From a virus, in IMG/VR virus record IMGVR_UViG_3300028535_000001: a DNA stretch of 64,000 nt. The stretch is one strand, 5' to 3'. Shown piece by piece: positions 9,320-57,203 of the stretch. Each line of letters begins with the position of its first letter. The first letter of the stretch is position 1. A program made the position numbers and the translations under genes. The notes beneath the pieces were generated by a model. The model worked only from the letters and a program-made list of their open reading frames with translations. It was not told the origin of the DNA and ran no database searches.

Positions 9320-10037
9320 CCCTTACACACTCCTCAATGGATTGATGTTCGCTATGGTCATTTAATGTACTTTTTGTTTTAGGCTTTAACCAATCATCAT
9401 CATCTGTCCATCTTGCACTATTAATTATTATAAAATTAACATCATTATCTTTGGCCATTTTCATTGCTTGCCCAATACTCCTTTCATTATAACTGAATAT
9501 AATATATTGCCATAATGGTTTTGTGGAAAGATACTTTTTACTTTCTAACATAATCTTAAATAGTTTTTCGCCATCTTGATTTTTTCTATATATTCTACTA
9601 TCTTCAGGCATGCCATCTATACCAAATATCCAATTTGCTTTAGGGTTTGCTTGAAAGGCATTGATATAATGTTGCATAGGTTTTAAAGATGAAGCTACAT
9701 GTACTTCAACTTTAGTACCACGTTCTTTTGTGATTTTTAATAATTCGTTTATTTTTGGGTGATGTATTGGGTCTGAATATTGACCACAAAAAGATATTCT
9801 TGTAAACCAATCCAATAATTTATTAAATTCAGGTATTGTTAAATCTCTGCCTGGTACTTTAAGGCCTTTGTATAAGTAACTTCTTTGACGACCACAACGT
9901 AAACATTCTAATGGACACCTATGAGATAGATCAATGTTTAAACGTTTATGTCTTCTATCAAAAAAGGAATTTTCCTTTATTTTGATACCGTGTTCTTTAA
10001 AACACATGTCTATCTTTTCTCTATTCGTTTCAATCAT
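9285..10037 (-). CDS. Radical SAM protein
   Basis: CPLECLRC (CxxxCxxC); FCGQYSDP; FGIDG. Confidence 0.88.
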   Translation of the reverse strand: MIETNREKIDMCFKEHGIKIKENSFFDRRHKRLNIDLSHRCPLECLRCGRQRSYLYKGLKVPGRDLTIPEFNKLLDWFTRISFCGQYSDPIHHPKINELLKITKERGTKVEVHVASSLKPMQHYINAFQANPKANWIFGIDGMPEDSRIYRKNQDGEKLFKIMLESKKYLSTKPLWQYIIFSYNERSIGQAMKMAKDNDVNFIIINSARWTDDDDWLKPKTKSTLNDHSEHQSIEECVRGGCFDRKNGDD

Positions 10038-10054
10038 AATATAAAACTATTTAG

Positions 10055-10378
10055 TTAAATACTAAAAGATGTTCCACAACCACATGATGATTTAGTATTA
10101 GGGTTTTTGAATTGGAAAGAACTACCAAAGATTTCTTCTTTGTAATCCAACTCCATACCTGCGACATATATTTCAAATAGATTATCTATTACTACTAGAT
10201 TGTCAACTATAATATCATCTTTAGTTGGTGTCTTTTCAAATTCGTTTGGTATAAATGACCATTCGTATTCGTGACCTGCACAGCCACCACCTTTTACTTC
10301 TAGTCTAACATAATCTACTTTATGTTTTTCTTTTAAAATATTTAAATGTGCTTTCGCACCTTCCGTTAATGTAATCAT
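10055..10378 (-). CDS. A-type Fe-S carrier (IscA/SufA/HesB family)
   Basis: GGGCAG and NPNTKSSCGCGTSF motifs. Confidence 0.95.
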   Translation of the reverse strand: MITLTEGAKAHLNILKEKHKVDYVRLEVKGGGCAGHEYEWSFIPNEFEKTPTKDDIIVDNLVVIDNLFEIYVAGMELDYKEEIFGSSFQFKNPNTKSSCGCGTSFSI

Positions 10379-10387
10379 AATTTTCCT

Positions 10388-10660
10388 TTAGATAGGCATA
10401 CCAGTTTGTTTACCTATTTTAGGCTCTTCACCTAATATACTTCTATCTTGTTCTGTAGTATTATTTAGGTAAGTTTCATATTGCTCTTTTGTTAAACAAT
10501 AACATTGACCTACACTAGTAGGATATTTTTTATTATACTCTTGACTTATCACCACTGATTGTTGATAACAGTTATCATATGTTTCAAATGGTACTTCGTT
10601 GTGTATCGTCTGACAAGCAGTCCCTATACACATCATAATAACAAGAAAAAATTCTCCCAT
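10388..10660 (-). CDS. Small Cys-containing exported hypothetical protein
   Basis: GGAGG SD, hydrophobic N-terminus, 5 Cys. Confidence 0.6.
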   Translation of the reverse strand: MGEFFLVIMMCIGTACQTIHNEVPFETYDNCYQQSVVISQEYNKKYPTSVGQCYCLTKEQYETYLNNTTEQDRSILGEEPKIGKQTGMPI

Positions 10661-10997: not shown

Positions 10998-11086
10998 TAT
11001 ATCTCCTTACAATTTATTTTTTTATTAATAAATCACGTCAGAAATATTAGATATAGAATGAAATAGTTGGTAAATACCAACACTTA

Positions 11087-11094
11087 TATTTATA
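11087..11094 (-). promoter_or_regulatory. T4-type late promoter TATAAATA heading the Fe-S island
   Basis: Exact motif in the intergenic region upstream of 10997. Confidence 0.6.
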
Positions 11095-11276
11095 AAAGAT
11101 TAGTGTAAAAAGTGAAAATTGTTTTTGCGATTAGTAATCAATGACCGATCAGTGTCCGGCCTATAGGGCTTTGGAGCCTTCCTTGAAACTCAACACCGTT
11201 ATATATGTTTTGTAAGATTTATAGGCCTAGTGTCTAATAGAATAATAATAACAAGTTAATACTCCTAAATACTTGT

Positions 11277-11837
11277 ATGAAATGGATGACCAACGATAAA
11301 CCAAAGAGTTGTCCTGATAGTAATAATCATTTTAAATACCAGAAAGAATCTGATCCTTTATACTACCAGGAACATAACGCCTTTAATGACGAAGAAATAA
11401 AACGTATAATAGAATGTGAGAAAACCGATCCTTGGTTACTTGAAAGATTATACCACTATATGAATAAAGCTAATGATAAAGGTTGGCATTACAGTATAGA
11501 TGGTGAACAAATACAATTACATAATTATAAACCAGGTAATCAATACATGTGGCATAGAGACGGAATATGTGGCCACAATAGTGTAATAAAGAACCTTGCT
11601 GATCCATTACATAATCTTACAAGAAAAATATCAATGACTATATTACTTAATGAACCATCTGAATTTACAGGTGGTAAGTTTCAAATAAAGAAACATGATA
11701 TAGAAGACTTTACAATAGATATGAAAAAGGGAACTGTTATTGTATTCCCTGCTTGGTTAGGCCATAGGGTAACACCTATAGAGACCGGCGAAAGACATAG
11801 TTTGCCTGTGTTCTTTTATGGAAGACCCTTTATTTAA
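11277..11837 (+). CDS. 2OG-Fe(II) oxygenase (PKHD/prolyl-hydroxylase-like)
   Basis: WHRD..RKISMT..GHRVTPIETGERHSL: HxD..H..RxS. Confidence 0.9.
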   Translation: MKWMTNDKPKSCPDSNNHFKYQKESDPLYYQEHNAFNDEEIKRIIECEKTDPWLLERLYHYMNKANDKGWHYSIDGEQIQLHNYKPGNQYMWHRDGICGHNSVIKNLADPLHNLTRKISMTILLNEPSEFTGGKFQIKKHDIEDFTIDMKKGTVIVFPAWLGHRVTPIETGERHSLPVFFYGRPFI

Positions 11838-12089
11838 GACTTCAACCAAATAATAAAGAAACCTACAATGCTTGCAATCCAGGTCATCCATATATCTTCA
11901 TAGATAAAGATAGTGTCTAAAGAAGTAATAATAATAGGGATAGAAATACTGTTATAATGGCCAATATCCCACAAATATAATATATCTTATTTGCCAGGCT
12001 TTTCATTGTTCCACATAATCAGTAAAGCTAATACTAATAAAAAAGGAAGACTTATCAATAATAAATTTATAGTTAAATCCATTAACATA

Positions 12090-12118
12090 ATCATATACTA
12101 TTTATGTGATAAAGTCAA
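12090..12118 (-). promoter_or_regulatory. Sigma70-type promoter
   Basis: TTGACT-17nt-TATGAT preceding tiny hydrophobic ORFs. Confidence 0.65.
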
Positions 12119-12301
12119 TGCTCCAATACGTGACGTTCCGTAGATCAACTTACAGTTGAGGCCTGCTTATCCGGCCACCGGCAATCCTGGAGGAAAAAAA
12201 TAAGATAAAGGATAATGCTAATGATTGTTATTGCAAATATAGATTAAACCTGGTGGACCCAGGATCAATAGCGCTGGCATATATGAAAAATTTTATTGAG
12301 T

Positions 12302-13573
12302 TTAAGGATTAAGGTCTATCGTAGCCCCTCTATGTGTTACTGCGCCTGTTGTGTTAGATGTCTTTGTGCCGGCCACATCTTCTTGTTTATTACCTTCTAC
12401 TAATATTGTGTAATTGCCTCCCACTTTAACATTGTAATCGCCACCTGCATTTACATTAATTCGGCCATCTTTGGTTACCATATTAATATCACCTTGATCT
12501 ACTTGTATGTTTATGTTGGCGTTCTTGCCTACATGTATATCGTAATTGTTTTCTTCTTCGCCATCTTTGTTAATGAATATTTTGTGGCGGCCATTAATAG
12601 TAATATCGGAGTTTCCTTTTATATTAGTATTGTGAGTGCCGGCGATTAACTGATAATTATCGTTGGCCACTTTGGTCACCAGGTCTCCGTTGTTGGTCAT
12701 TTCATAAGAAGTACCAGAAGTGTGGCGTTCATGTATTCGGTAATAATTTGTTCTTACCTCTTCGCCGTCAATAATTTCTATTGTATATGAATCATCAAAC
12801 TCTTTTATATGGCCTGACTCGGATTCAAACACGTGGTTATATGGGTAAACGGCATTGTAAGTGTGAGGTGTTATTTCTTCTCCTTCTTCGGATAAAACAC
12901 CAAGGCCATCGTATTGTATTTTAGGTTCTGACCAAGAAGTACTATCAGAGGCCAGTATTTCCGATCCATCGGCCGCCGTGAGTAAATCAAAATCGGCCGT
13001 TGCAATAGAAACCCAACCTTCGCCAGGTTTATTTTTATCTAAACGATTTAAAACCCTGGCCGTTAAACTGCCGTGTTCTAATTCTGTATTATGGACTGCG
13101 AGTCTATTTGTATCAGTCTCGTTAATGTTGCGAGGATATACCGACTTGTGGTAATTGTCATCATCTTCGTTATCGGCTCCGTAATCCTCAATGGCCTTAT
13201 CTTCAATATCTTCCTCTGATCTCCTAATTGGGTCATTAAATCCTACGTCAGGATTGCCATAATATTTCGGTTTACCTGGCAAACTCCCACAAACGACAGG
13301 CTCCTGGTGGCCACTGTCACGGAAATATCCCCATACCCAACTGCCTTCAACTAAAAAACTCGGTGAAGTCCCAAGGCCAGAAATACCTGGACTCTGCGTA
13401 GACAACATCACTGTCGCCCACGGTAAATCGGCCGTTGTTAATAAACTTTTATTTTCTGTATGAAAACCTAAACACCTTACTCTAAGCCGGCCTGTTTTAA
13501 TTGGGTCGTGCCTGTCCTCTACGACACCACAAAACCATGTAAACTCTGTATTCTTTCCTATAAATTTGGCCAT
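12302..13573 (-). CDS. 5: Baseplate central spike gp5-like (OB-fold plus beta-helix, no lysozyme)
   Basis: WFCGVVEDRHDP..GRLRVRCLG OB-fold; YPYNHVFESESGHIKEFDD; C-terminal VxGN repeats ending IDLN. Confidence 0.88.
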   Translation of the reverse strand: MAKFIGKNTEFTWFCGVVEDRHDPIKTGRLRVRCLGFHTENKSLLTTADLPWATVMLSTQSPGISGLGTSPSFLVEGSWVWGYFRDSGHQEPVVCGSLPGKPKYYGNPDVGFNDPIRRSEEDIEDKAIEDYGADNEDDDNYHKSVYPRNINETDTNRLAVHNTELEHGSLTARVLNRLDKNKPGEGWVSIATADFDLLTAADGSEILASDSTSWSEPKIQYDGLGVLSEEGEEITPHTYNAVYPYNHVFESESGHIKEFDDSYTIEIIDGEEVRTNYYRIHERHTSGTSYEMTNNGDLVTKVANDNYQLIAGTHNTNIKGNSDITINGRHKIFINKDGEEENNYDIHVGKNANINIQVDQGDINMVTKDGRINVNAGGDYNVKVGGNYTILVEGNKQEDVAGTKTSNTTGAVTHRGATIDLNP

Positions 13574-13630
13574 TGTCTTAAATATTTTCCGATATATGTT
13601 TGTTTTTAATCTCTACACTATACGTCATTT

Positions 13631-13897
13631 TTACCTATTAACTTTATCCTTACGCAAATGGCCTTTATTCTTTACGTGGTCTCTATAGGCCTGCGTATTC
13701 TTATTTATTAGTGTGTTATAACCTTTCCCAATGGAATAGGCATGCGCTAGCATGACTTTAGCTATTGGCCTACCTCTGATTGCCAGTGAGTTGTGTATTC
13801 TCTGTGACCATGAAAGTGTTTTAACAAAGGCCGCCTTGAGAATAAGGTCTATGTGTCTATAAGGGTTGTTCTCTTTATTATACATTGTCATATTCAT
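13631..13897 (-). CDS. Hypothetical basic protein
   Basis: AAGGA SD; no recognisable motif. Confidence 0.4.
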   Translation of the reverse strand: MNMTMYNKENNPYRHIDLILKAAFVKTLSWSQRIHNSLAIRGRPIAKVMLAHAYSIGKGYNTLINKNTQAYRDHVKNKGHLRKDKVNR

Positions 13898-14025
13898 TGT
13901 TCCTTAATCTTGTCTTTAATATGTTATGGTCAAATCCTCTCGTCATGGCCTCTTATATGGCCTCCGTTAGTATATCTATCGTCAAAGCGAGCGGAGCGGT
14001 CGGAAATTTCGGAGATTCTCTAAGC

Positions 14026-15516
14026 CTATGAGAGTACACTTGGTGGACCTCCTTTATTTGCTTCAGTTATTATTGCGTCATCTAAATCATATTGTAATAC
14101 GTTGATGGCCTCGGCGTTTTCCCTACCTGTAAAGGTATCTATTTCCTCCTCTGGATATGGAACCCTTACGGCGTCCTTCATACACGTAATCGCCATTGTG
14201 TGATTATCTTTAGTAGTATCTATTTTATGTCGTATGTTCTTAACCAGGTAGCGTCCAGACATATAGGGATCGTTATCTAAAGGGTTATCAGCACCTGCCG
14301 GTTCGTATGACGGAATCTCTAATGCAACTACATCACCAGCGGACAATCCTGTGAATCCTCTTGCTGTGAGTGCTACCTGCATTGAGGCGAAAGCCAACTT
14401 TTGTGATAATCTTTTGGCCATTGTAGTACCTTTTGGAACACCTTCAAAATCATCATGTATTTTGGTTGTTGTAGATTTCATAAATGTACGAGTCTCTGCA
14501 TAATCACTAAATTGGTTACCATGATAGTTTATCACTGGCGCCATTGATTTAGTATCTGTTTTACCACCACTGCCATCATGCTCTGTATGGTGTGATTTTT
14601 CAAAGTCCAAATTGTAATCATAATCATGTATTGTATATGTTTTATCCATTAAATCGTGTGCAATAGTTCTACTTGCAAATACACCATTCCTTAAATTCTG
14701 TATTGTGTCATATTGGTTCATTATTTGAAAATTATCCACTATCTGCATTTCTTGTATGATATTGGTTACACCAGTACCACCTTTAACTGACCTTGGTTTC
14801 TTTTCAAATCGTGCAACAGCAGGTCTAGCCGCTCCATCTGTAATCGCCAACATATTTTCTAAACTTCTAAATCTATATCCTGTACTGTCTTCATAGAAAA
14901 AATAACCAGCATTATTATATCTACCTGATTCAGCTGAGTTTCCTAAACTTTGAATAAATTCAAATGGCCTTAATCCTGTTGGCACATACTTACGAGCACC
15001 TTTCGTTTCTTCTAATATTAATGTCTTATTGGATTCTATATCACGTCTGAATATATCCAGTACCATTTGATCTATAGTACCTGTCATAGATCGGTAGATT
15101 TTCTTTGTCTCGTTTGTTAATATTTCTTTAGAGGCAAAATTTAAAACATACATTTGTGTTCTTGGAGCAAGTTCTCGTCTGGCTGATATTTTATATATGT
15201 ACATAGGGTGGCCGGTCACCGATGTGAAATCAAAACCTTTTGCAATACCAGGTGTATTCAGTTTAAATTCTATTCGTTCAAACCCGGTAAGAGGTAAGTG
15301 ATTGGGAACATTTTGGTTATCTACCACTACTACATTACCTGATAGGCCTTTAGTAAATATATCCTCGTATATATTGATTTCTAGTACTTGTGATCTGATA
15401 CTAATTTTTTTTGGATTACTACCACCTTCAGCAGATATATAAGATATTAATTGTATATCTGATAAGGAAAATTGGCCAGCTTTTGTTAATGTGTCAGCGT
15501 TTATTTGATCGTACAT
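14026..15516 (-). CDS. Putative baseplate hub/tail protein (gp27-like)
   Basis: Between gp53 and gp5; INIYEDIF, YFFYED and SGRYLVKNIRH motifs typical of phage hub proteins. Confidence 0.55.
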   Translation of the reverse strand: MYDQINADTLTKAGQFSLSDIQLISYISAEGGSNPKKISIRSQVLEINIYEDIFTKGLSGNVVVVDNQNVPNHLPLTGFERIEFKLNTPGIAKGFDFTSVTGHPMYIYKISARRELAPRTQMYVLNFASKEILTNETKKIYRSMTGTIDQMVLDIFRRDIESNKTLILEETKGARKYVPTGLRPFEFIQSLGNSAESGRYNNAGYFFYEDSTGYRFRSLENMLAITDGAARPAVARFEKKPRSVKGGTGVTNIIQEMQIVDNFQIMNQYDTIQNLRNGVFASRTIAHDLMDKTYTIHDYDYNLDFEKSHHTEHDGSGGKTDTKSMAPVINYHGNQFSDYAETRTFMKSTTTKIHDDFEGVPKGTTMAKRLSQKLAFASMQVALTARGFTGLSAGDVVALEIPSYEPAGADNPLDNDPYMSGRYLVKNIRHKIDTTKDNHTMAITCMKDAVRVPYPEEEIDTFTGRENAEAINVLQYDLDDAIITEANKGGPPSVLS

Positions 15517-15518
15517 AA

Positions 15519-16043
15519 TTATTCATTTATCAATTTGTCAAATTCTTCTAATAATACAGGCAAGAAACCTGGGTTTAGTAATTTGATTTTTCTTCTTTGA
15601 TCTTGTATTCTTTGTTCATATTCTCTATTAGAAACTGATTGAGCACCAGACTCATTACTGTTTACCTCTATCATATGTGAATAATCGTTTGATTTGGTTG
15701 GACCACTTGATTGTACCTTTTCATAATGATGTATTGCGTCTGGATTGGAATACTTTGTGTCAACAAAGGATTCAAATGCTCTGAAATCTAAAGGCCAATC
15801 ATAAAAACCATCGTGACCAGCATTTGTCATTAATATAACCCAATGATATTGAGGATCACCAAAATGTTTCATTGCTGTATCTTCAGGTCTTTCACCATTT
15901 GGTACATCATACTCTTGGTATAAACTTGCCTCGTTAATTATCTTATCTCTGATTTTAACTCGTTTGAATATATCGGTAACCTGTTTGTATGTAATATTAT
16001 CGTTAGAATATTTGCCTTTTGGAAACTTTTCAAAATATGCCAT
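15519..16043 (-). CDS. 53: Baseplate wedge gp53
   Basis: MAYFEKFP..GERPEDTAMKHFGDPQYHWVIL..DWPL..RRKIKLL. Confidence 0.9.
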   Translation of the reverse strand: MAYFEKFPKGKYSNDNITYKQVTDIFKRVKIRDKIINEASLYQEYDVPNGERPEDTAMKHFGDPQYHWVILMTNAGHDGFYDWPLDFRAFESFVDTKYSNPDAIHHYEKVQSSGPTKSNDYSHMIEVNSNESGAQSVSNREYEQRIQDQRRKIKLLNPGFLPVLLEEFDKLINE

Positions 16044-16044
16044 A

Positions 16045-17214
16045 TTAGAATCCCTCCGCTACAGTATGTTTAGTCATAATTTCTGTTTCACCAAACTCTA
16101 AATCCATTTTAATAATAGTTGGCGGTGCGCCTTTTTCATCTGGTATTAATGATGATACAACACCTTCGGGTGCATAATCAATATTACATGATTTTAAAAC
16201 ACAGCGGCTAACTCTTGGTATATATGAGTTTTCACTTTCTCTGTACATATATGTTATTTGAAATTCAGATGGTGTTATGAAATATCCTCCTTGAAGACCA
16301 TTTGATTGTTCAGGTAACATATGAAATCTTAACAATTGTAAAATTTTGTGTACTTGGTCTTTCTCTGACTCATCTTTTGGTGCAAATATAAATGGAAAAT
16401 TAAATGATCTAAATGGCACAGATTGGAATATCATTTCTAAATTTTGGTTCTTTGCTTGACCTAATGCTTTGTCTAATGTTTGTCTAGCATTTTCAAAACC
16501 TGGTATTATACCAATAGCCCCAAATCCAGCTGACTTCATTACTTCACCAATCAGTTGACCGCCTTTTTTACCAGCTGTTTTTATTTTATCTATCCAACCA
16601 GTTTGATTCATAACAGAACCAATAGCTTGGCCTAAATCACCTGCTAAACCTGTTTGTGTATCTTCATAACCCACACTGTAATTAAATTTCATTGACTCTG
16701 CTGGCGTATATAATATAATACTATCTGAAATATAATTATGCGTATCACCTGTTTTGGATACTAGACCAGAAGATGTTGATCTTAATCTGCTGGATTGGGA
16801 TATGCCATTTCTTTTTATGTTTGCTATTCTAGTTCTACTGCCTTTGGGTTTATGGCGAGCTTCAAAACCAGATAGTGTTTTACCACCATCTAATTGTCCA
16901 TTCTGAAAAGTCTGTTGTTTAAATTTGGATGATTTGTGAGATACAATATCAAATATAATATAATGGCCGGCACCTAAATTAGATGTTTCATTTGGATAGT
17001 ATACTGTACCATATTGATATGGATTATTTATAGACTCCATATGTGATAATGGACCTGTTGTTCCTATCTCTAACGGCGATTTGTTTAATAGTTTGGCTGC
17101 CACTTTGGTTGTTTGACCAGATGAGGCAAAGGATAATTTACTAGCAATTGCGCCAGAAACCATGTTACCTATTTTACCTTTAACTATGTTTTTGATCTTG
17201 TTTGTCCAAGCCAT
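16045..17214 (-). CDS. 48: Baseplate tail-tube cap gp48
   Basis: NQNLEMIFQSVPFRSFNFPFIFAPKDESE..PSEF..CVLKSCNIDYAP; start set at 17214 after AGGA SD and late promoter. Confidence 0.82.
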   Translation of the reverse strand: MAWTNKIKNIVKGKIGNMVSGAIASKLSFASSGQTTKVAAKLLNKSPLEIGTTGPLSHMESINNPYQYGTVYYPNETSNLGAGHYIIFDIVSHKSSKFKQQTFQNGQLDGGKTLSGFEARHKPKGSRTRIANIKRNGISQSSRLRSTSSGLVSKTGDTHNYISDSIILYTPAESMKFNYSVGYEDTQTGLAGDLGQAIGSVMNQTGWIDKIKTAGKKGGQLIGEVMKSAGFGAIGIIPGFENARQTLDKALGQAKNQNLEMIFQSVPFRSFNFPFIFAPKDESEKDQVHKILQLLRFHMLPEQSNGLQGGYFITPSEFQITYMYRESENSYIPRVSRCVLKSCNIDYAPEGVVSSLIPDEKGAPPTIIKMDLEFGETEIMTKHTVAEGF

Positions 17215-17240
17215 ATTTACTTCCTTTATATATACTGGTA

Positions 17241-17248
17241 TATTTATA
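17241..17248 (-). promoter_or_regulatory. Late promoter TATAAATA for gp48
   Basis: Exact motif in the gp48/gp4 divergent spacer. Confidence 0.75.
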
Positions 17249-17254
17249 ACGGAT

Positions 17255-17683
17255 ATGAAGAAATCTTTTAAAGGATTATATAAACCAGAGAACCCCAAAA
17301 AATATGTTGGTGATGTAAAGAATATAATATACCGTTCTCTTTTAGAGAGACGTATGATGGTGTATTTAGATAATAGTCACAATATAGAACATTGGGCTAG
17401 TGAAGAATTGCCTATTAGATATTATAGTCCCATTGATAATAAATGGCATAGATACTTTCCAGATTTTGTAGCAAAGACAACTAAAGGTAATAGGGTAGTA
17501 ATTGAAGTTAAACCATCACGCCAATGTGTTCCACCTAAAAAACCAACTAGCAGAAAAACTAAATCTTATATGAGAGAGTCTCTTGAATATATCAGAAATA
17601 AGGCTAAATGGCAAGCCGCTACCAAATATTGTAAAACTCAAGGTGCTGAATTTAAAATTATTACTGAAAAGGATTTAACCTAA
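17255..17683 (+). CDS. 4: Head completion nuclease gp4
   Basis: KGLYKPENPKKYVGD..IIYRSLLER..WASEE..HRYFPDF..IEVKP; likely start 17255. Confidence 0.92.
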   Translation: MKKSFKGLYKPENPKKYVGDVKNIIYRSLLERRMMVYLDNSHNIEHWASEELPIRYYSPIDNKWHRYFPDFVAKTTKGNRVVIEVKPSRQCVPPKKPTSRKTKSYMRESLEYIRNKAKWQAATKYCKTQGAEFKIITEKDLT

Positions 17684-44694: not shown

Positions 44695-44709
44695 GTTCTG
44701 GTTTTGTTC
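44695..44709. promoter_or_regulatory. LexA-type box GTTC-N7-GTTC
   Basis: GTTCtggttttGTTC upstream of the tandem early promoters. Confidence 0.6.
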
Positions 44710-45377
44710 TATTTCCAGTTGTCTTCAACCCATTTCTGCTTTGATTCGTGTGGGTTAGGTTTACCATGAAAGACAGCCACTTTTGTGTTTGACTTTCTTT
44801 CAAATGTCCACTCTGATTGGTGTATTCTTGGTTTCTCTCTATCGTACCACTTGTATGAGAAAGTCCAATCGTCTGGCATAATCTTTAGATGTGGTGATTC
44901 ATGCATAATTAAGCTAATCACCTGTTGATCGCCTTGGTTTCTACTCATACTGGTTTCATCGTTCTTAAATGATTTCCATATATGTTCAGCTGTGATATTA
45001 TTGAATTTCATTATACTTGAATTGAAAGATTTACTATTAGGATTAAAATCGTTTATGATACCAAAGGTGTCTTCTTTACCAAACAATGCCATATCGTCTA
45101 TGTTATCTAATATCACTACATCTAAATCAAAGTATAAACAAGTACCTTGTAGGTCGGCCTCATGGCTAAAGAGAGTTAATTTATTCCACCAACCATCATA
45201 TTGGTTAAATGGTAATTTTCTTGTCTCTATATCGTCAATTATTTTTAGTGAAGGGTGGTTCGTATAACAAATAAACTTAAATGGCATAGAAAGGTTCCTT
45301 TTTACCATACTGTATAGTTTATTTACATAGTCTATACTATACTTGTTTCCCCAATATACACATACTATATTAACCAT
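44709..45377 (-). CDS. Glycosyltransferase (GT-A fold)
   Basis: CVYWGNKY..GWWNKL..YFDLDVV (DxD)..NSSIM..GDQ..FHGKPNPHE. Confidence 0.8.
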   Translation of the reverse strand: MVNIVCVYWGNKYSIDYVNKLYSMVKRNLSMPFKFICYTNHPSLKIIDDIETRKLPFNQYDGWWNKLTLFSHEADLQGTCLYFDLDVVILDNIDDMALFGKEDTFGIINDFNPNSKSFNSSIMKFNNITAEHIWKSFKNDETSMSRNQGDQQVISLIMHESPHLKIMPDDWTFSYKWYDREKPRIHQSEWTFERKSNTKVAVFHGKPNPHESKQKWVEDNWK

Positions 45378-45987
45378 CTAACAAGTATCTCACACATATT
45401 GGAAAATGGTCTTTCATATGTTTTGATATATGATGTGTTATCACTCTTGTTTCCACTTGAGCATTTTCTTTATTTCTTAAATTACATACCCTAGCAAATG
45501 CATATAAACTACCTGACCATATCCACTCGGTCATCATACATTGAGGTAATATCATACGTGCCATTTCAGGTGCTATATCGTCTGCTAACATATCATTATA
45601 CATTTCTTCAGCGTCATTTATTATTTTAGTTATGTCATAAGGTACTTCTTCATCACTTGAACCTTGTTTAATATTCTTATCAGGACGTTTTCTCCACATA
45701 AATGGAATATAAAAATGTGGTTTATCATCTACATATCTTCTACTGACTTCGTTCCAAGCCAAACCAACTTGATGTTTAACTAATTGTCTTGCAACAAATA
45801 TTGGTGCCTTAATTCTAAATGACATTGTAGCGTGAGCAAATGGTGACCAATGATTGTGTTCTGCCAAATACTTGATTAACTTCTCATCTTTTTCATCAAG
45901 TATATCTTTTGTTTTTGCAAAAGAAACTCTAGCAGCATTCACTACTGATAGGTCACTACCCATTTTATCTATAAGTTCAACGTTCAT
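45370..45987 (-). CDS. thyX: FAD-dependent thymidylate synthase
   Basis: VVNAARVSF, HWSPF, RQLVKHQ..NEVSRRY, PEMARMILP. Confidence 0.95.
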   Translation of the reverse strand: MNVELIDKMGSDLSVVNAARVSFAKTKDILDEKDEKLIKYLAEHNHWSPFAHATMSFRIKAPIFVARQLVKHQVGLAWNEVSRRYVDDKPHFYIPFMWRKRPDKNIKQGSSDEEVPYDITKIINDAEEMYNDMLADDIAPEMARMILPQCMMTEWIWSGSLYAFARVCNLRNKENAQVETRVITHHISKHMKDHFPICVRYLLDG

Positions 45988-46750
45988 CTTTAAATTTTTT
46001 ATATCTCTTTAAAAACTCCTCTGCTAATTTCTCTTGACCTATTTTGTTAGGGTGTTTATCTAAATCAGATATTTTATGTTTAATATCTAAACAATAACGC
46101 AATGTCCATGATTTTTCTTGGTCATAATACTTGTTAGTAATTACATCACCAGGCCAACCTAGAAAGTTCTTATTCATTCTATTATAATAACCTGTTGATT
46201 GTATTAAAGCTTTAAAGTAATCTGCTTTTGCATTTAAAATTTTACTTCTAAAAGAAAAAAAATTATTTTTTTTTGGATACACCTTGTGATATTGCTCGTG
46301 AAATTTTTTGTTTATGTGTGATCTCCATAAGGAGATCATTTGAAATTGTACATACGGTACATTAAGATGTCTACATAAATTTTGATATGCAAATTGTAAT
46401 CTTATAGATTTTAAAACATGATAATCAAGATCACCTTTTATGTCAAACCAATCATTTCTCCATACCTGTTTCTTGTGAATGGTTTCTGACCAATCACGTC
46501 TATGACCTTGTGACCAGGCAGCCACTACTAAACCTACTCTTGTACTAAAATTAGTTAAGTAATCTGATATACTACTATAAATTTTTTCATTACCTGCACC
46601 TGAAGCTGACAAGTTAACTAAATCCATATTCAATTCCTTAGCAACTAGTTCTGGCCATTTAGGCCAATTACATTCCAATTCAGGATGAAAAGTAGAAATT
46701 AAATCATTAGCTGACCAACTACAACCACTTACTAACATTATATTTTTCAT
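45977..46750 (-). CDS. SGNH/GDSL-like protein
   Basis: SGCSWS, NLSASGAGN, DKHPNKIG. Confidence 0.5.
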   Translation of the reverse strand: MKNIMLVSGCSWSANDLISTFHPELECNWPKWPELVAKELNMDLVNLSASGAGNEKIYSSISDYLTNFSTRVGLVVAAWSQGHRRDWSETIHKKQVWRNDWFDIKGDLDYHVLKSIRLQFAYQNLCRHLNVPYVQFQMISLWRSHINKKFHEQYHKVYPKKNNFFSFRSKILNAKADYFKALIQSTGYYNRMNKNFLGWPGDVITNKYYDQEKSWTLRYCLDIKHKISDLDKHPNKIGQEKLAEEFLKRYKKFKDER

Positions 46751-47577
46751 ATTGTAAATACCTTATTTGGTTGTTTAGATAAAACTTTATAGGCAGTTCC
46801 ATTTTTCATTTCTTCTATTGTAAATTGGTTGTTTGCCAATAATTTCATCCACTCATTTACATTATCTTTTGTAGGTTTTAATGGATCATTTATAAATTGA
46901 ATAAATCTTGTAGATACTGGCCATGCAACGTTTCTACCATCACACACAACAGGCACACCTTCTAATATTGAGTCAATAGCTGATAAACTCATATTGGTAA
47001 TTAAACAATGGCAATCATCTAAATCTTCTTTTATATCTTTACCCCACCATTCATTGTTTGGTCTAGGTTTATATCTAATTCTTATATCTCTATTTGTTAA
47101 TTTTTTTATTTGTGAAATTGCTCTATCTACCCAATCTCCTTGAGTCAGATTATTATGTTTATAAGTTACCGTTTCAGAGGAAGGACATATTAGTATATGA
47201 TCTCCTTCACCACCTTTCCAATTTTCAAATTTAGATGGTAGACCTTTTTTTGCTAATTCTTTTAATCTAACATCACCACCTTTTTTTGATCCTTCTAATG
47301 TGTGTATCTTACCTTTTACAATTCTAAAGTAAGTTTTATCGTAATCGTGTATTTTAGGGATAGGGTATCTTGTAATTGGTTGAGTTAAATAACCAACATC
47401 AACATAGTACCATTCTTGTCCATGTTTTTCTAGTTGTTCAATCTTTGATACGTTATCACCACCTAAACCCCAAAAAAAATGTTGGTCTAAACTTGTTTTT
47501 GGCCAGCCCTTTTCCAAGGCAGGCCAAATTTCGTGGGATAAACAATCAATTTTATCCATTCTATGTGTAAAAATCAT
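46747..47577 (-). CDS. Capsule-biosynthesis/GT-B-like protein
   Basis: YYVDVGY, IRYKPR, SLSAIDSILEGVPV, LANNQFTIEEM. Confidence 0.55.
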   Translation of the reverse strand: MIFTHRMDKIDCLSHEIWPALEKGWPKTSLDQHFFWGLGGDNVSKIEQLEKHGQEWYYVDVGYLTQPITRYPIPKIHDYDKTYFRIVKGKIHTLEGSKKGGDVRLKELAKKGLPSKFENWKGGEGDHILICPSSETVTYKHNNLTQGDWVDRAISQIKKLTNRDIRIRYKPRPNNEWWGKDIKEDLDDCHCLITNMSLSAIDSILEGVPVVCDGRNVAWPVSTRFIQFINDPLKPTKDNVNEWMKLLANNQFTIEEMKNGTAYKVLSKQPNKVFTI

Positions 47578-48482
47578 AATAACCTTTTGTGTACCTCGCC
47601 ACTATTTATCTCACTCATTTTCCATTGTGTATAGGCCATGTCATATAACCATTGTGTTCTATCTTTCTCTGGCATTACTGTTTCCTCTAACACATCTATA
47701 TTATGAAAAGACACTGGCCAAGCATGTGATGTTTTTGATAATGTGATAGTAGGTATACCAGCACAAACTGTTTCTACTAATGCATTACTTGAATATGATA
47801 TTGCAACTCTAGCATGATCTAGGTCTTTATATAAGTCTTTACTACTAGATTTATTAAAATCATCACCAACATGTTTACTAAAAATTATATTGTTTCTTAC
47901 TTTTAAATTTAATAAAGATCGTAAGTTATATCTTAAAGGAAATCTAGGGTGTAATCTAACCATAATGTCTTCAGCAGTATATTTTGAAATTTTTATTATA
48001 ATATCTTTTACCCAATTATCATAGTCACTATTTCTACTTACTAGATCATTTAAACTGGTGTCTACAGGATTTTGTAATAGTAATAAAATATAATCACCAT
48101 TTTTCTTCCATGGTTTTATCTCAATGTTTTGTTCTTTCTGTATCTTCAACCATCTACCTGGTTTACAGTTTTTATTATTAAAATTACCTTTATTGTAAGT
48201 ATAACAATCTCTACCTACTCTATAATAATAATCTGGTTTATCTATATTTAAATTCTGTCTAAAGGTTGCTTGTTCTACAACTAATATAGGTTTCTTTTGG
48301 TCTAAAATATATCTGTACATATCAGAGTTTATTATCTTCATTCTACCTAATATATTTGATTGAATATATGCGTCTGCTTTATGTTTATCTCTATCTTTAT
48401 ATTCTATAAGTTTAAAATCTTCATGTGTAGGGAAAACAAAACCAGCCTTGGTGTTAAATGCACCTTTGATACCTATAATCAT
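47574..48482 (-). CDS. Capsule-biosynthesis/GT-B-like protein
   Basis: LLLQNPVD, VRLHP, SSNALVETVCAGIP, YTQWKMSEI. Confidence 0.55.
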   Translation of the reverse strand: MIIGIKGAFNTKAGFVFPTHEDFKLIEYKDRDKHKADAYIQSNILGRMKIINSDMYRYILDQKKPILVVEQATFRQNLNIDKPDYYYRVGRDCYTYNKGNFNNKNCKPGRWLKIQKEQNIEIKPWKKNGDYILLLLQNPVDTSLNDLVSRNSDYDNWVKDIIIKISKYTAEDIMVRLHPRFPLRYNLRSLLNLKVRNNIIFSKHVGDDFNKSSSKDLYKDLDHARVAISYSSNALVETVCAGIPTITLSKTSHAWPVSFHNIDVLEETVMPEKDRTQWLYDMAYTQWKMSEINSGEVHKRLL

Positions 48483-49168
48483 AATCTAACCTTTGTTGTT
48501 ATATCATATAAATGAAACCATTCATCTGCATAATCTTGATTCTCATAATCTTTATACCAAGGACCACCTAATGTCCAATGGACATTTTTTGCGTCTGGAT
48601 TATAATTATATTCATTTACTAACCAGTTCCACTCTAAAGGTATATCACCTATCATATGTTCTCTTTCTAACCATTTAAATTGGTGTAAGTCTAAACCACT
48701 TGCCTTGTTAACATATTCAGGTGTTAGTGCTGTACATTGTGAATTGTGAAATAACATTACACTAGACCAGTTCTTTTTAGGAAACGTTAGATTTTTTGCA
48801 GCTCTAAATTTTACATCTTGTTTAGGTATATAATCATGTTTACAACACATAACAGAATATTTGTATGTAGCATGACCATATAAATCGTAAATATCTGATC
48901 TAAACATCATATCACAATCCATATAAACTGACCAGCCCTTATATTTTGATAGATAAGGTACTAAAAATCTGCTAAATGCAAAGTCTGTTGATTGATTGGA
49001 TTCTTTTGCTCTTTTAAATTCTCGTAAATTATTTAAACTTAATGGAGTTATACTTACAGGTCCACTAGCATGTGATCTAATACTTTCAGATAGTATGTGG
49101 TATGCTACTGGCTCACCATAATCATATCCTATAAAAACATTACAAGGAGTTGGTACAATATTAATCAT
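48479..49168 (-). CDS. Glycosyltransferase (GT8-like)
   Basis: VFIGYD, STDFAFSRFLVPYL, YMDCDM, KNWSSVMLF, HWTLGGPW. Confidence 0.85.
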   Translation of the reverse strand: MINIVPTPCNVFIGYDYGEPVAYHILSESIRSHASGPVSITPLSLNNLREFKRAKESNQSTDFAFSRFLVPYLSKYKGWSVYMDCDMMFRSDIYDLYGHATYKYSVMCCKHDYIPKQDVKFRAAKNLTFPKKNWSSVMLFHNSQCTALTPEYVNKASGLDLHQFKWLEREHMIGDIPLEWNWLVNEYNYNPDAKNVHWTLGGPWYKDYENQDYADEWFHLYDITTKVRL

Positions 49169-49842
49169 AATCTAGATTCTTTACTTTTACCTTTTATCTT
49201 TCTTATTCCTTTAGTATGGTCATATACTTTACCTAAAATTGATCTAGCTTGAACATGACCTACTCTTCCGTCGCCAATATCGTGGTTAATTACACCGTAT
49301 TTGTCCTCAAATCTCTTTCTAACTACATCAAATATCCATGAATCATGTTGTTGTTCTTCTTTAAAAAGTAAATCTTTATCATACATCTTTCTCATATCTG
49401 AAGCAAACTGTTTTATAAAACCATGTTTCATATTAAAATATATAAAACCACACTCACTATAAGTTGGTCTGTTAAGATAAGTTAACATACACTCGTCTCT
49501 ATGTAAATGTTTTTTAATCCAATTTACATCAATCTTTTTATAGAACACACTATCGGCGTCTATATACATAATGCTATCGTAATCTTTACTTTCTAAAATT
49601 GATTGTGTATATGCATATACTTTATAAGAAAATCTTACTGCGTCTTTAAGAAAACTTACAGGCATACTTACTTTGTTTCTGTCTACAAATTTTTTAAGTT
49701 CTGGTATTTTATCATACATATCAATATCTTCATTGTATATTTCTAATTCAAATGGCCACTTATACGTTTTTTTGAATCTTCGGGCATATTGTTTGTAGAG
49801 ATAATTGTTCCATGTACTAACGACTTTTATTTTCATGGCCAA
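49165..49842 (-). CDS. Putative nucleotide-sugar transferase
   Basis: DAVRFSYKV, YIDADS, SECGF, HDSWIFD, DHTKG. Confidence 0.65.
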   Translation of the reverse strand: MAMKIKVVSTWNNYLYKQYARRFKKTYKWPFELEIYNEDIDMYDKIPELKKFVDRNKVSMPVSFLKDAVRFSYKVYAYTQSILESKDYDSIMYIDADSVFYKKIDVNWIKKHLHRDECMLTYLNRPTYSECGFIYFNMKHGFIKQFASDMRKMYDKDLLFKEEQQHDSWIFDVVRKRFEDKYGVINHDIGDGRVGHVQARSILGKVYDHTKGIRKIKGKSKESRL

Positions 49843-50374
49843 CCTTTTGTATATAATAACTATCTACAATATCAGATAAAGGGTTACCACACTTTTCAGT
49901 GTCTAATATTTGTTTTAAATCTATTTTGGTTTCTTTTAGAAAGGATTCATACATCATATCTTTGTCTGCGTTTCCCTTTCCTGTTGCGCCTTTCTTAACA
50001 ACGCTCGGTACAACTGTATCGTAACTATAACCTTTGTCTTGTAATCTAAATTTGAGGATTCCACAATTTTCAGCAATTTGAAAAAGACCTTGACCTTTAG
50101 AGCCAAACGAGTAGCCTTCAATATAAATTTCTGTAGGAGTATGTATGGGAGTGAGTATATCAAATACAAAATCTGATATATTTTTGAATCTTTCAATAGG
50201 ATCAGTCCATGCTTTATGTTCATAACCAATTATATTCTCACTTTGTTGACCTTGCCATTTCTTTTTGGTGGTCAGATAATAAAAATTTAATTTACCATCA
50301 TTTATACAAACAGCTGGACTCGTTAAAGAGTAATCAATTCCAACTTTCGTGTTCTGCGTCTTCTGGTATATCAT
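49817..50374 (-). CDS. RuvC-like nuclease
   Basis: VGIDYS, IEGYSF, VKKGATGKGNADK, SDIVDSY. Confidence 0.8.
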   Translation of the reverse strand: MIYQKTQNTKVGIDYSLTSPAVCINDGKLNFYYLTTKKKWQGQQSENIIGYEHKAWTDPIERFKNISDFVFDILTPIHTPTEIYIEGYSFGSKGQGLFQIAENCGILKFRLQDKGYSYDTVVPSVVKKGATGKGNADKDMMYESFLKETKIDLKQILDTEKCGNPLSDIVDSYYIQKVGHENKSR

Positions 50375-50501
50375 TGTCTTCCTGTTCAACCTCATATCCA
50401 CAGAAAGGACAAGTAAGAGCTTCTAAATCGTTTTTCTCCTCATCCCATTCTACGGTATATTTAGTCTGACAATTAGAACAATGTTTTGTAACTCTTTCCA
50501 T
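50334..50501 (-). CDS. Small zinc-ribbon protein (55 aa, not in ORF track)
   Basis: MERVTKHCSNC..TCPFCG; coupled to the nrdB stop. Confidence 0.7.
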   Translation of the reverse strand: MERVTKHCSNCQTKYTVEWDEEKNDLEALTCPFCGYEVEQEDNDIPEDAEHESWN

Positions 50502-55561: not shown

Positions 55562-57196
55562 CTAAATTGTGTAGATAGATACCATATTAGATTTGCCTTT
55601 AACTTTAACCATATCTAATTTCTTCCAATCGTATTTTGATCTTAGCATTCTGTATGTATCATAACCTACAATTAATGTTGCGTCATAATTTTTACTTACA
55701 CCTTCTAATCTACTTGCAAGATTAACGGCGTCACCTAAAACAGAATAATCAAAACGTTGATCTGATCCCATATTACCAACTACAGCAGGACCTGAATTTA
55801 TTCCTATGCCGATGTTTATCTTAATATCTGGACCAAAACTATCACTGTCATTTAATTCTTTTAATTTGTTCATCATTTCACATGCCGAGTTAACTGCAAG
55901 TGATCTATGATTATGTTGTTGTATTGGAGCATTCCAAAATGCCATAATACAATCGCCCATGTACTTATCAATAGTACCACCATTTTTCATTATAATGTTT
56001 GTCATGGGTGTTAAAAATTTATTTATAACTTTTGTAAGACCTTGTGGATCAGATTGAAATTTTTCTGAAATAGGAGTAAATCCTCTTATGTCACAAAATA
56101 AAAAAGTCATATCTCTTGTATCACCACCTAATTTTAAAAGTTCAGGATTTTTCTGCAACTTCTTAACCATATCTGGTGCTAGGTAATGTTCAAATTGTTT
56201 TTTGATTTGTAATTTTAATCTATTCTCTCTTGCAAAGTTATTGTATATCAAGTGTGCCCATACTATACTTCCTATTACTGCGATTGATGACCAATCTGTA
56301 AGTATCATATGTTTTTGCCATAGATAACCACTTGTAAGTGCTAAATCAAAATAAAAACCGACTAAAATTGCGGCTGACCAAAATAAGTCAACTCTAGGTA
56401 AAACTATTAAAAAGAAACCTAATGTTAATAATAAAGCAATCCATTCTGCCATAGGTGCCCAATCAGGTCTTTTTATATACTCACCTGATAATAAAGTTTC
56501 TGTTGACAAGGCCGCTATTTCGTGTGTGTTCTTTAAACCATTAGGTGTAAGTACAAAAGTGGAACCATCAAATGTAGCACCTATGAATACTATCTTACCT
56601 TTCATAGATGACCAATCTTTATCTGTATAATCTATTCTAGGTATTCTATGTCTGAAATCAATCCATATACTATCTTGGTCAGGTATTGGAAACTTGATTA
56701 TGGATAAAATCTTTTCCGGCACGGAATTATCCAAGGATAAAATTCGTATAACAGAGTCAACGCCCACTTTCACTTCCACGTTAGCGATAGCGAGAGATTT
56801 CCTTTCAATACTCTTTAAGTTCTTAGCTGTACTTGTTTCAGTTAGAATAACTGGATACTTTGAGATCATCTTCAAAAACATTTCATCACCACCTAGCCTA
56901 TCTTTGTGAACAAATACTACGTTCAAAAATACTAGAGCTGCACCATTTTTATATGCATTGATGATAGTACGACCTAATATGTCTCTCTTCCAAGGCCATT
57001 GACCTTGTTTCTTTAATGCTTCATTTGATATATCTAACAACACAAGACTTTTAGACTCATAGTTATCGCCAAGTGTTTGATATAGATCAAAGGTCTTTAG
57101 TTGGAGGGTTTGTAAAGGTACTGGATTATATAATTTTAATCCTAATAGTATTAATACACTTACTATTACTGCCCAAATGGAAGTAAATTTAGTCAT
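55562..57196 (-). CDS. CHASE2-domain class III adenylate cyclase
   Basis: N-terminal TM, GQWPWKR CHASE2 motif, 3 TM, FCDIRGFT, DKYMGDCIMAFW, DYSVLGDAVNLASRLE. Confidence 0.93.
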   Translation of the reverse strand: MTKFTSIWAVIVSVLILLGLKLYNPVPLQTLQLKTFDLYQTLGDNYESKSLVLLDISNEALKKQGQWPWKRDILGRTIINAYKNGAALVFLNVVFVHKDRLGGDEMFLKMISKYPVILTETSTAKNLKSIERKSLAIANVEVKVGVDSVIRILSLDNSVPEKILSIIKFPIPDQDSIWIDFRHRIPRIDYTDKDWSSMKGKIVFIGATFDGSTFVLTPNGLKNTHEIAALSTETLLSGEYIKRPDWAPMAEWIALLLTLGFFLIVLPRVDLFWSAAILVGFYFDLALTSGYLWQKHMILTDWSSIAVIGSIVWAHLIYNNFARENRLKLQIKKQFEHYLAPDMVKKLQKNPELLKLGGDTRDMTFLFCDIRGFTPISEKFQSDPQGLTKVINKFLTPMTNIIMKNGGTIDKYMGDCIMAFWNAPIQQHNHRSLAVNSACEMMNKLKELNDSDSFGPDIKINIGIGINSGPAVVGNMGSDQRFDYSVLGDAVNLASRLEGVSKNYDATLIVGYDTYRMLRSKYDWKKLDMVKVKGKSNMVSIYTI

Positions 57197-57203
57197 ATCA
57201 TAT

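Follow-up and report, generated by a model that had tools for sequence, protein, structure and literature searches.

A 64,000-nucleotide stretch of viral DNA, IMG/VR record IMGVR_UViG_3300028535_000001 (the whole of which we call the window), carries a dense array of the tetramer GGCC laid over its baseplate gene gp5 and the adjoining DNA. The array proper (11158-14110) comprises 30 sites, 25 of which fall in a dense core of 1.95 kb (12160-14110). Within gp5 nearly every usable synonymous choice goes to forming GGCC, and what is conserved at this locus among related phages is the density of sites, not the particular sites. We consider it probable that the array is maintained as a DNA-level element. 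Its likeliest function, which we put forward tentatively and by analogy with oriE of phage T4, would be that of a replication origin or recombination element. Our literature search found no published description of a GGCC array.

The window derives from an uncultured T4-like pelagimyophage, one of the group of phages that infect SAR11. The assignment follows from the database matches of its gp5, the best of which (47% identity) is to the baseplate protein from Pelagibacter phage Mosig EXVC030M, with HTVC008M second (34.5%), and from its baseplate gene order. This order, plus-strand gp4 followed by a tail-tube cap-like gene (gp48-like), gp53, a hub gene of 496 amino acids (aa), an open reading frame (ORF) of 88 aa and gp5, is the same as in Mosig and, extra genes apart, the same as in T4. 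Curli-type genes are also present in the window.

GGCC occurs 93 times in the 64 kb: 6 times in the first 11 kb, 30 times between 11158 and 14107, where local base composition predicts 3.5 occurrences (z = 14.2), and 8 times in a decaying upstream tail (14111-16968, with sites from 14416 to 16965) that holds about 2.8 sites per kb, compared with a background of about 0.95 per kb in the remainder of the window. The initial annotation had counted by hand about 30 sites in 11150-14110, 16 of them in gp5, and about 6 in the first 11 kb, had expected about 3 from composition and had seen the density decay over 14.4-17 kb; exact counting bears out all of these figures. Among the 256 tetramers, GGCC is the sole strong outlier in the array region. 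Other all-G/C tetramers are not enriched there (CCGG 7, GCGC 3, CGCG 0), the minor enrichment of TGGC, GCCT, GCCA and CGGC mostly reflects overlap with GGCC, and the one-step neighbors GGTC, GACC, GGCT and AGCC are not depleted. No site of the array is preceded by G or followed by C. We found no extended motif, the information in a logo of 213 sites being confined to GGCC plus one base on either side (H-GGCC-D), and neither helical periodicity nor a longer repeat family was detected in the array.

With its tails the array covers about 5.8 kb in all (11158-16965); the spacing of sites is irregular (12-347 bp), and the array is centered on the 5' half of gp5 and the DNA immediately upstream. The 30 sites are divided among gp5 (16), the 88-aa ORF (4), the hub gene (1), an oxygenase gene (2) and DNA outside these four named genes (7); one of the last seven, at 11959, falls within small unconfirmed ORFs. 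In the core there is one site every 80 bp in gp5, every 67 bp in the 88-aa ORF and every 64 bp in a 128-bp intergenic spacer, which holds two sites only. This similarity between coding and non-coding DNA disfavors a simple mutational process, under which unconstrained DNA should be overfilled. The array also runs across a terminator-like hairpin (12249-12263, minus strand, downstream of gp5), a border between convergent genes and an inserted gene of opposite orientation, and is thus not bound to a single transcript.

Codon usage does not account for the sites in gp5. Against the 16 observed, 0.6 +/- 0.8 were obtained when codons were resampled from the usage of the window and 4.7 +/- 1.7 when the gene's own synonymous codons were permuted, so that the enrichment survives the control for local GC content and codon usage that the initial annotation had proposed as a check. 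Dipeptide positions offering a synonymous opportunity for GGCC are taken in 16 of 22 cases in gp5, compared with 47 of 828 (5.7%) elsewhere in the window. Of the six left unused, four could be filled only by creating GGGCC and a fifth is incompatible with a neighboring site that is in use; the gene thus takes 16 of its 17 usable positions (94%). Use of opportunities drops to 6 of 34 in the hub gene and to background level in gp53 and the next gene. The sites of gp5 occupy two reading frames (GGC-Cnn and nnG-GCC), and the GC-rich synonymous codons to which they had at first been attributed are indeed rare ones, GGC and GCC, enriched only where they form part of GGCC.

A search of IMG/VR with gp5 yielded 80 loci, labelled L001 onward. 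Sixteen metagenomic relatives, from various metagenomes and with gp5 proteins 44-96% identical to that of the window, carry the array at the same place, with a constant profile extending from -500 to +1300 relative to the gp5 start. GGCC numbers 8-17 in those with a whole or nearly whole gp5 and 5-6 in two contigs that hold its first third only. The exceptions among loci with gp5 about 44% or more identical are L008, L080 and L081. Loci at or below 39% identity mostly have 0-2 GGCC, often below expectation, apart from L019, L026, L027 and L029 with 5-7. Feasible positions are used at 50-89% in the relatives with an array, 43% (6 of 14) in Mosig and 7% (1 of 14) in L008. In the complete genome of Mosig (141 kb), gp5 constitutes the GGCC-richest 2-kb window, with 9 sites as against a median of 1. 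The array is common to the Mosig-like clade of pelagimyophages, in a weaker form in Mosig itself.

The individual sites turn over while this density stays. Between lineages whose synonymous divergence is saturated, only 4-6 of 16 positions are shared, and sites also turn over between close relatives in non-coding DNA, namely in the region downstream of gp5. Such a pattern indicates that the array is upheld by selection or by a strong bias and not by passive inheritance. The initial annotation had taken the cluster for a signal at the level of DNA and not a consequence of protein sequence. Its view is sustained by the disregard of the sites for gene borders, strand and reading frame, by their use of rare codons and by the relatives, in whose homologous region the array is kept while its positions turn over. 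The flanking-base rule, on the other hand, was rejected as a property of whatever reads the array: neither GGGCC nor GGCCC occurs anywhere in the window or in the 141 kb of Mosig, but these words do turn up in L007, L008 and L011, and the rule looks like a separate case of word avoidance.

In the mechanism that we propose, the array would be a cis-acting element that is bound, cut or marked by a GGCC-specific factor. This reader would probably be encoded by the phage and would recognize the array as double-stranded DNA, and the array may identify a region in which replication is initiated and recombination occurs, the counterpart of T4 oriE in gene 5. The initial annotation had suggested a mark for replication or packaging; such a mark is possible, and replication gains ground from the annotation of oriE within gene 5 of T4. 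The mosaic structure of gp5 among relatives, described below, also speaks for a recombination zone. The RefSeq record of T4 places this rep_origin at 79355 within gene 5 (77959-79686), with a primer RNA antisense to the gene and with repEA and repEB antisense within it. According to a review of T4, oriE is located at a transcription strand switch; the window likewise has such a switch, where plus-strand gp4 meets the minus-strand baseplate genes. The same review describes 12-nt 'iterons' at oriE that have no established role. These we take to be the GTTGAAGGTAAT repeats, a family with a 24-nt period at 79402-79569, 50-200 bp from the annotated origin, which coincide with the coding sequence for the octapeptide repeats of the gp5 beta-helix.

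Several observations weigh against an origin or recombination zone. Since the oriE iterons coincide with repeats that encode the beta-helix and have no shown role, the parallel with T4 is positional and not mechanistic. A conserved antisense promoter was sought without success: the strongest sigma-70-like candidate, at 11991-12019, is missing from L002 and L003, and such matches, another of which lies on the antisense strand at 12630-12657, are barely more numerous than in shuffled sequences (28 vs 19.4). Antisense ORFs in gp5 (35-58 aa) show no conservation beyond nucleotide identity and differ in L005. Cumulative GC and AT skews, the former among the checks suggested by the initial annotation, are monotonic and follow the direction of transcription, without any feature at gp5. 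Near the array we recognized no gene for an initiator-like or sequence-specific DNA-binding protein, and the 88-aa ORF at its center was rejected as a reader, having no family and only a low-confidence helical model. A 4-bp word is, moreover, very short for a DNA-binding initiator, and T4-like phages replicate mostly via recombination and have poorly conserved origins.

That the reader would belong to the phage is suggested by a contrast between two cultured phages. HTVC008M and Mosig were both isolated on the same strain, HTCC1062; GGCC is 5-fold under-represented in HTVC008M (22 vs 112 expected, none in gp5), whereas the whole genome of Mosig has 120 vs 102 expected. A host factor alone does not impose the array, since HTVC008M purges GGCC on the very same strain, and the contrast argues for a clade-specific phage reader. 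Twenty-three genes of the window have a match in Mosig and none in HTVC008M, but nothing links any of these Mosig-clade genes to GGCC and we rejected them as candidates. Also discarded was the gene at 17162-17683, whose TnsA-like match had raised the possibility of a nuclease reader; it encodes gp4, the conserved protein of head completion.

The 23 genes matched in Mosig and not in HTVC008M include a block of eight (44709-50395). It comprises a glycosyltransferase-like gene (phrog_1962), ThyX, three genes of 257-302 aa (45977-48482) and two more that resemble nothing recognized, and a RuvC-like resolvase (49817-50395), and it could be a DNA-metabolism or DNA-modification module. We regard the three genes of 257-302 aa as paralogues on the ground that the protein sequence (probably Trp-Pro) imposes two or three GGCC on every one of them.

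The sites might alternatively be targets of modification, whether N4- or C5-methylation of GGCC or phosphorothioation at GpsGCC, that gate origin firing, packaging cleavage or the timing of gp5 in the manner of Dam sites at oriC and P1 pac; we find this doubtful. Four-base palindromes are typical methylase words, and in a marine long-read study GGCC was among the methylated motifs found only in viral metagenome-assembled genomes (PMC9516812). GGCC is furthermore the consensus core of Dnd phosphorothioation in Streptomyces lividans (PMC6435447), and a dndABCDE island is listed for Pelagibacter ubique HTCC1002 (PMC2663466). The initial annotation had itself named methyltransferase targets, a suggestion that the enzyme searches do not favor. 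No DNA methylase was found among the ORFs of at least 80 aa in the 64-kb window (the other >89 kb of the genome being outside this search), and tblastn gave no match there to an N4/N6 methylase taken from a related contig. The complete genome of Mosig has no C5, N4/N6 or Dam-type methylase (PF00145, PF01555, PF02086) and no Vsr match, and no C5 methylase was detected in related contigs or HTVC008M. The DndC family PF01507 was not found in Mosig or four related contigs; nor was DndE matched in them, although this search was weak, with 0 of 14 control genomes above the cut-off. An equally negative search of Mosig for the HaeIII endonuclease family is uninformative, as it matched 0 of 14 control genomes either. 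For SAR11 itself, the methylome paper reports methylation at GANTC/GAWTC and makes no mention of GGCC (PMC8919816).

A second alternative dispenses with function altogether and treats the array as the by-product of a local recombination hotspot in which mismatch repair or gene conversion is biased by sequence context. The gene is indeed a recombination mosaic. Relatives that are 92-100% identical in the flanking proteins are only 73% identical in gp5, the reverse is also seen, and the middle of the gene (approximately 12625-13055) is hypervariable, being unalignable with L005 and L006 even though its flanks are 85-93% identical. GC content at third codon positions (GC3) is also raised in gp5 of every pelagimyophage lineage examined, whether or not it has a GGCC array: values of 0.35-0.48 compare with 0.19-0.25 in other genes (0.35 vs 0.21 in the window, 0.39 vs 0.19 in L008, 0.39 vs 0.24 in HTVC008M and 0.48 vs 0.22 in L027; L001, L019, L033 and L097 were compared as well), an excess over neighboring genes of about 0.15-0.25. 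GC3 of gp5 is not raised in more distant marine myophage lineages or in T4. In the window the peak extends from gp5 through the 88-aa ORF, whose value of 0.42 is unsurpassed among the 82 genes, to the final 50 codons of the hub gene (0.40); it coincides with the array and persists when GGCC is masked (0.31 vs 0.21). The fall of site density with distance on both sides would likewise be expected of conversion tracts.

We nevertheless regard a mere by-product as rather improbable. No known repair bias makes GGCC specifically, the search of Mosig for a Vsr-type enzyme was negative as noted above, and the one-step neighbors (GGTC, GACC, GGCT, AGCC) are not depleted. The non-coding core is not clearly denser than gp5, and a saturation of 94% would demand a very strong bias. 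The L008 lineage, finally, has kept a GC3 of 0.39 and lost GGCC. Taken together, the similar densities across the core, the saturation of gp5 and the pattern of L008 favor selection for target density over a mutational or conversion by-product.

Words other than GGCC cluster at gp5 in some lineages that lack this array. In L008, all 7 copies of TACGCA lie within 0.8 kb at the start of gp5 (9600-10420), in part as the rare codons CGT and ACG. AGGGT is clustered in L018 and L019, with 10 of 10 copies of L019 in the gp5 region (60-890) and with some positions, but not others, shared by the two contigs; GCCGA is clustered in L026 and L027, 9 of 9 copies lying at gp5 (9958-11130 in L027). Each of the three words is found in either orientation and in several frames, and each is scarce on the rest of its contig. 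In simulations under a local first-order Markov null, however, the clusters reach p values of approximately 0.025-0.1 only, a level that some unrelated control loci reach too. It is improbable that gp5 bears a lineage-specific 'word code', with GGCC in the clade of Mosig and the window, other GC-rich words elsewhere and a fast-evolving phage reader. Were it true, the code would amount to an element of replicon identity or competition that changes specificity between co-infecting lineages, and the raised GC3 of gp5 in all lineages would be the trace left by such arrays and by sites that have decayed.

Two further word clusters were noted. In T4, four TACGTA palindromes lie within 0.7 kb (77267-77944) in the vicinity of gene 53 and the 5' end of gene 5, where approximately 0.5 are expected per 1.5 kb; an apparent cluster of ACGTA near the same two genes was discarded, being inflated by double-counting of these four palindromes. 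In the window, TCCCAA/TTGGGA occurs 12 times in 1.5 kb at 57001-58500, probably because of a protein repeat.

It is quite unlikely that the array is a pac-like region at which the terminase initiates headful packaging. There is a single array per genome, as the top-ranking 2-kb window of Mosig illustrates, P1 pac offers a precedent for clustered short palindromes, and a single-copy motif lies at 13996-14006. To our knowledge, however, T4-type terminases use no unique pac site and package circularly permuted genomes. The array, at 2-3 kb, is longer than any known pac site and lies far from the terminase genes, and by a rough reckoning the ends of IMG/VR contigs are not enriched at gp5 beyond sampling expectation.

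An effect at the level of RNA or translation, in which GGCC would serve as an mRNA cleavage or slow-decoding signal and keep hub expression low, seems very unlikely. Hub proteins are present in three copies per virion, the densest part of the array covers the 88-aa ORF and gp5, which probably share one late transcript, and the sites use rare codons; T4 RegB, a phage RNase specific for GGAG, provides a precedent for an RNase that reads four bases. Against this stand the enrichment of GGC and GCC only where they form GGCC and the continuation of the sites past the terminator-like hairpin, into intergenic DNA and into a gene on the opposite strand. The hub gene, too, probably belongs to the same late transcript, and it takes few of its opportunities. 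No structured RNA was found in the spacer (13898-14025), where an RNA element was rejected for want of an Rfam match and of a fold better than that of shuffled sequences.

A decoy or sink for a host GGCC restriction enzyme, also raised by the initial annotation, is hardly credible: other marine myophages do avoid GGCC strongly (HTVC008M as given above; L079 0 vs 31 expected), but outside the array neither the window (63 vs 37-46 expected, from composition or a first-order model) nor Mosig (109 vs approximately 102-110) avoids it, a cluster of cleavable sites in an essential gene would be lethal and not protective, and no restriction-modification systems are reported for SAR11 (PMC9516812). Because several marine myophage lineages avoid the word, GGCC restriction does seem to exist in some hosts.

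Other restriction-type words are strongly avoided in the window (observed/expected: TCGA 2/179, CGCG 0/39, GATGC 5/57, AGATCT 0/20, GATATC 0/20, TCATGA 0/20, TGATCA 1/20, GGGCC and GGCCC together 0/~12), and the set of avoided words is specific to the lineage, with GATC avoided in Mosig, CCGG in L007 and L008 and GGCC in HTVC008M. Such avoidance is surprising in phages whose SAR11 hosts are described as having no restriction-modification systems.

The locus itself is organized as follows. The gp5 gene (12302-13573, minus strand) encodes a baseplate hub or tail-spike protein of 423 aa with a match to Pfam Gp5_OB (2.8e-19), weaker matches, under the Pfam cut-offs, to Gp5_trimer_C and Gp5_C, and no lysozyme domain. 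The 88-aa ORF (13631-13897, minus strand) is small and basic and has a fast-evolving counterpart at the same position in all relatives; it matched no Pfam or PHROG family, and its structure is modelled, with low confidence (pLDDT, the predicted local distance difference test, 60), as a two-helix hairpin. The intergenic spacer upstream of it (13898-14025) has GGCC at 13947 and 13959 and, directly past the hub gene stop codon, a semi-conserved motif seen in the alignment of relatives, TTTCCGACCGC (13996-14006, minus strand). This motif has one exact copy in the window, near matches occur at chance level, and the variants in relatives are GTCCGGCG and TTCCGCCGC. The hub or tail protein gene (14026-15516, minus strand), in the position of gp27, matches the phrog_350 tail protein (1.4e-77) and, weakly, a baseplate hub.

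Downstream of gp5, the region 11838-12301 contains small hydrophobic ORFs and 3 GGCC in addition to the terminator-like hairpin. It is followed by the oxygenase gene (11277-11837, plus strand; 2OG-Fe(II), that is 2-oxoglutarate- and iron-dependent, Pfam PF13640, 2.7e-12), in which 2 of 7 opportunities for GGCC are used. In alignment this gene is a 568-bp insertion (11263-11831) relative to L002, L004, L005 and L006; L003 has the gene as well. The outer edge of the array is formed by a divergent intergenic region (10998-11276) with GGCC at 11158 and 11224 and a late-promoter word, TATAAATA, near 11090 on the minus strand.

Marine T4-like phages are among the most abundant viruses of the ocean, and their cis-acting DNA signals, origins included, are essentially unmapped. 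Here the signal is strong enough to outweigh codon usage in an essential structural gene, and it has persisted while gp5 diverged below 50% identity. As the weaker array of Mosig is carried by a phage grown on a cultured SAR11 strain, the question is directly testable. The identity of the reader could define how replication or recombination starts in these phages, or could reveal a new sequence-specific DNA-handling protein. That Mosig keeps and HTVC008M purges GGCC on one host strain is also relevant to the influence of restriction pressure on pelagiphage genomes.

Several known systems invite comparison with the array. Clusters of Dam GATC sites at E. coli oriC and P1 pac resemble it in that a short palindrome exceeds expectation by far at one cis-acting locus, but they span 160-250 bp and have a known methylase and the readers SeqA and pacase, whereas the array is tenfold the length and overlies a structural gene, and no methylase to match it was found in the window or Mosig. 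The comparison with P1 pac made in the initial annotation fits poorly for the same reasons, 2-3 kb standing against approximately 160 bp, and also in that the array is not in a terminase gene. Dnd phosphorothioation shares the identical four-base palindrome, and one SAR11 strain carries dndABCDE; its marks, however, are scattered genome-wide and not known as local arrays, quite apart from the missing matches in Mosig. Iteron origins, such as lambda ori in gene O and the ori/crr octamers of P4, likewise place multiple recognition words within a coding region. Word orientation is immaterial at P4 ori. Iterons measure 8-22 bp and bind an initiator whose gene lies close by; the array differs in having no consensus past H-GGCC-D and no evident initiator gene. 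At T4 oriE the words are 12 nt long, recur with a 24-nt period and encode a beta-helix, while the array consists of a 4-bp palindrome, placed synonymously and spaced irregularly over 2-3 kb. Yet both are DNA elements that overlie the coding sequence of gene 5 with short repeated words, and both occupy the same genomic place, beside a strand switch in a syntenic baseplate block (gp4, then gp53, hub and gp5).

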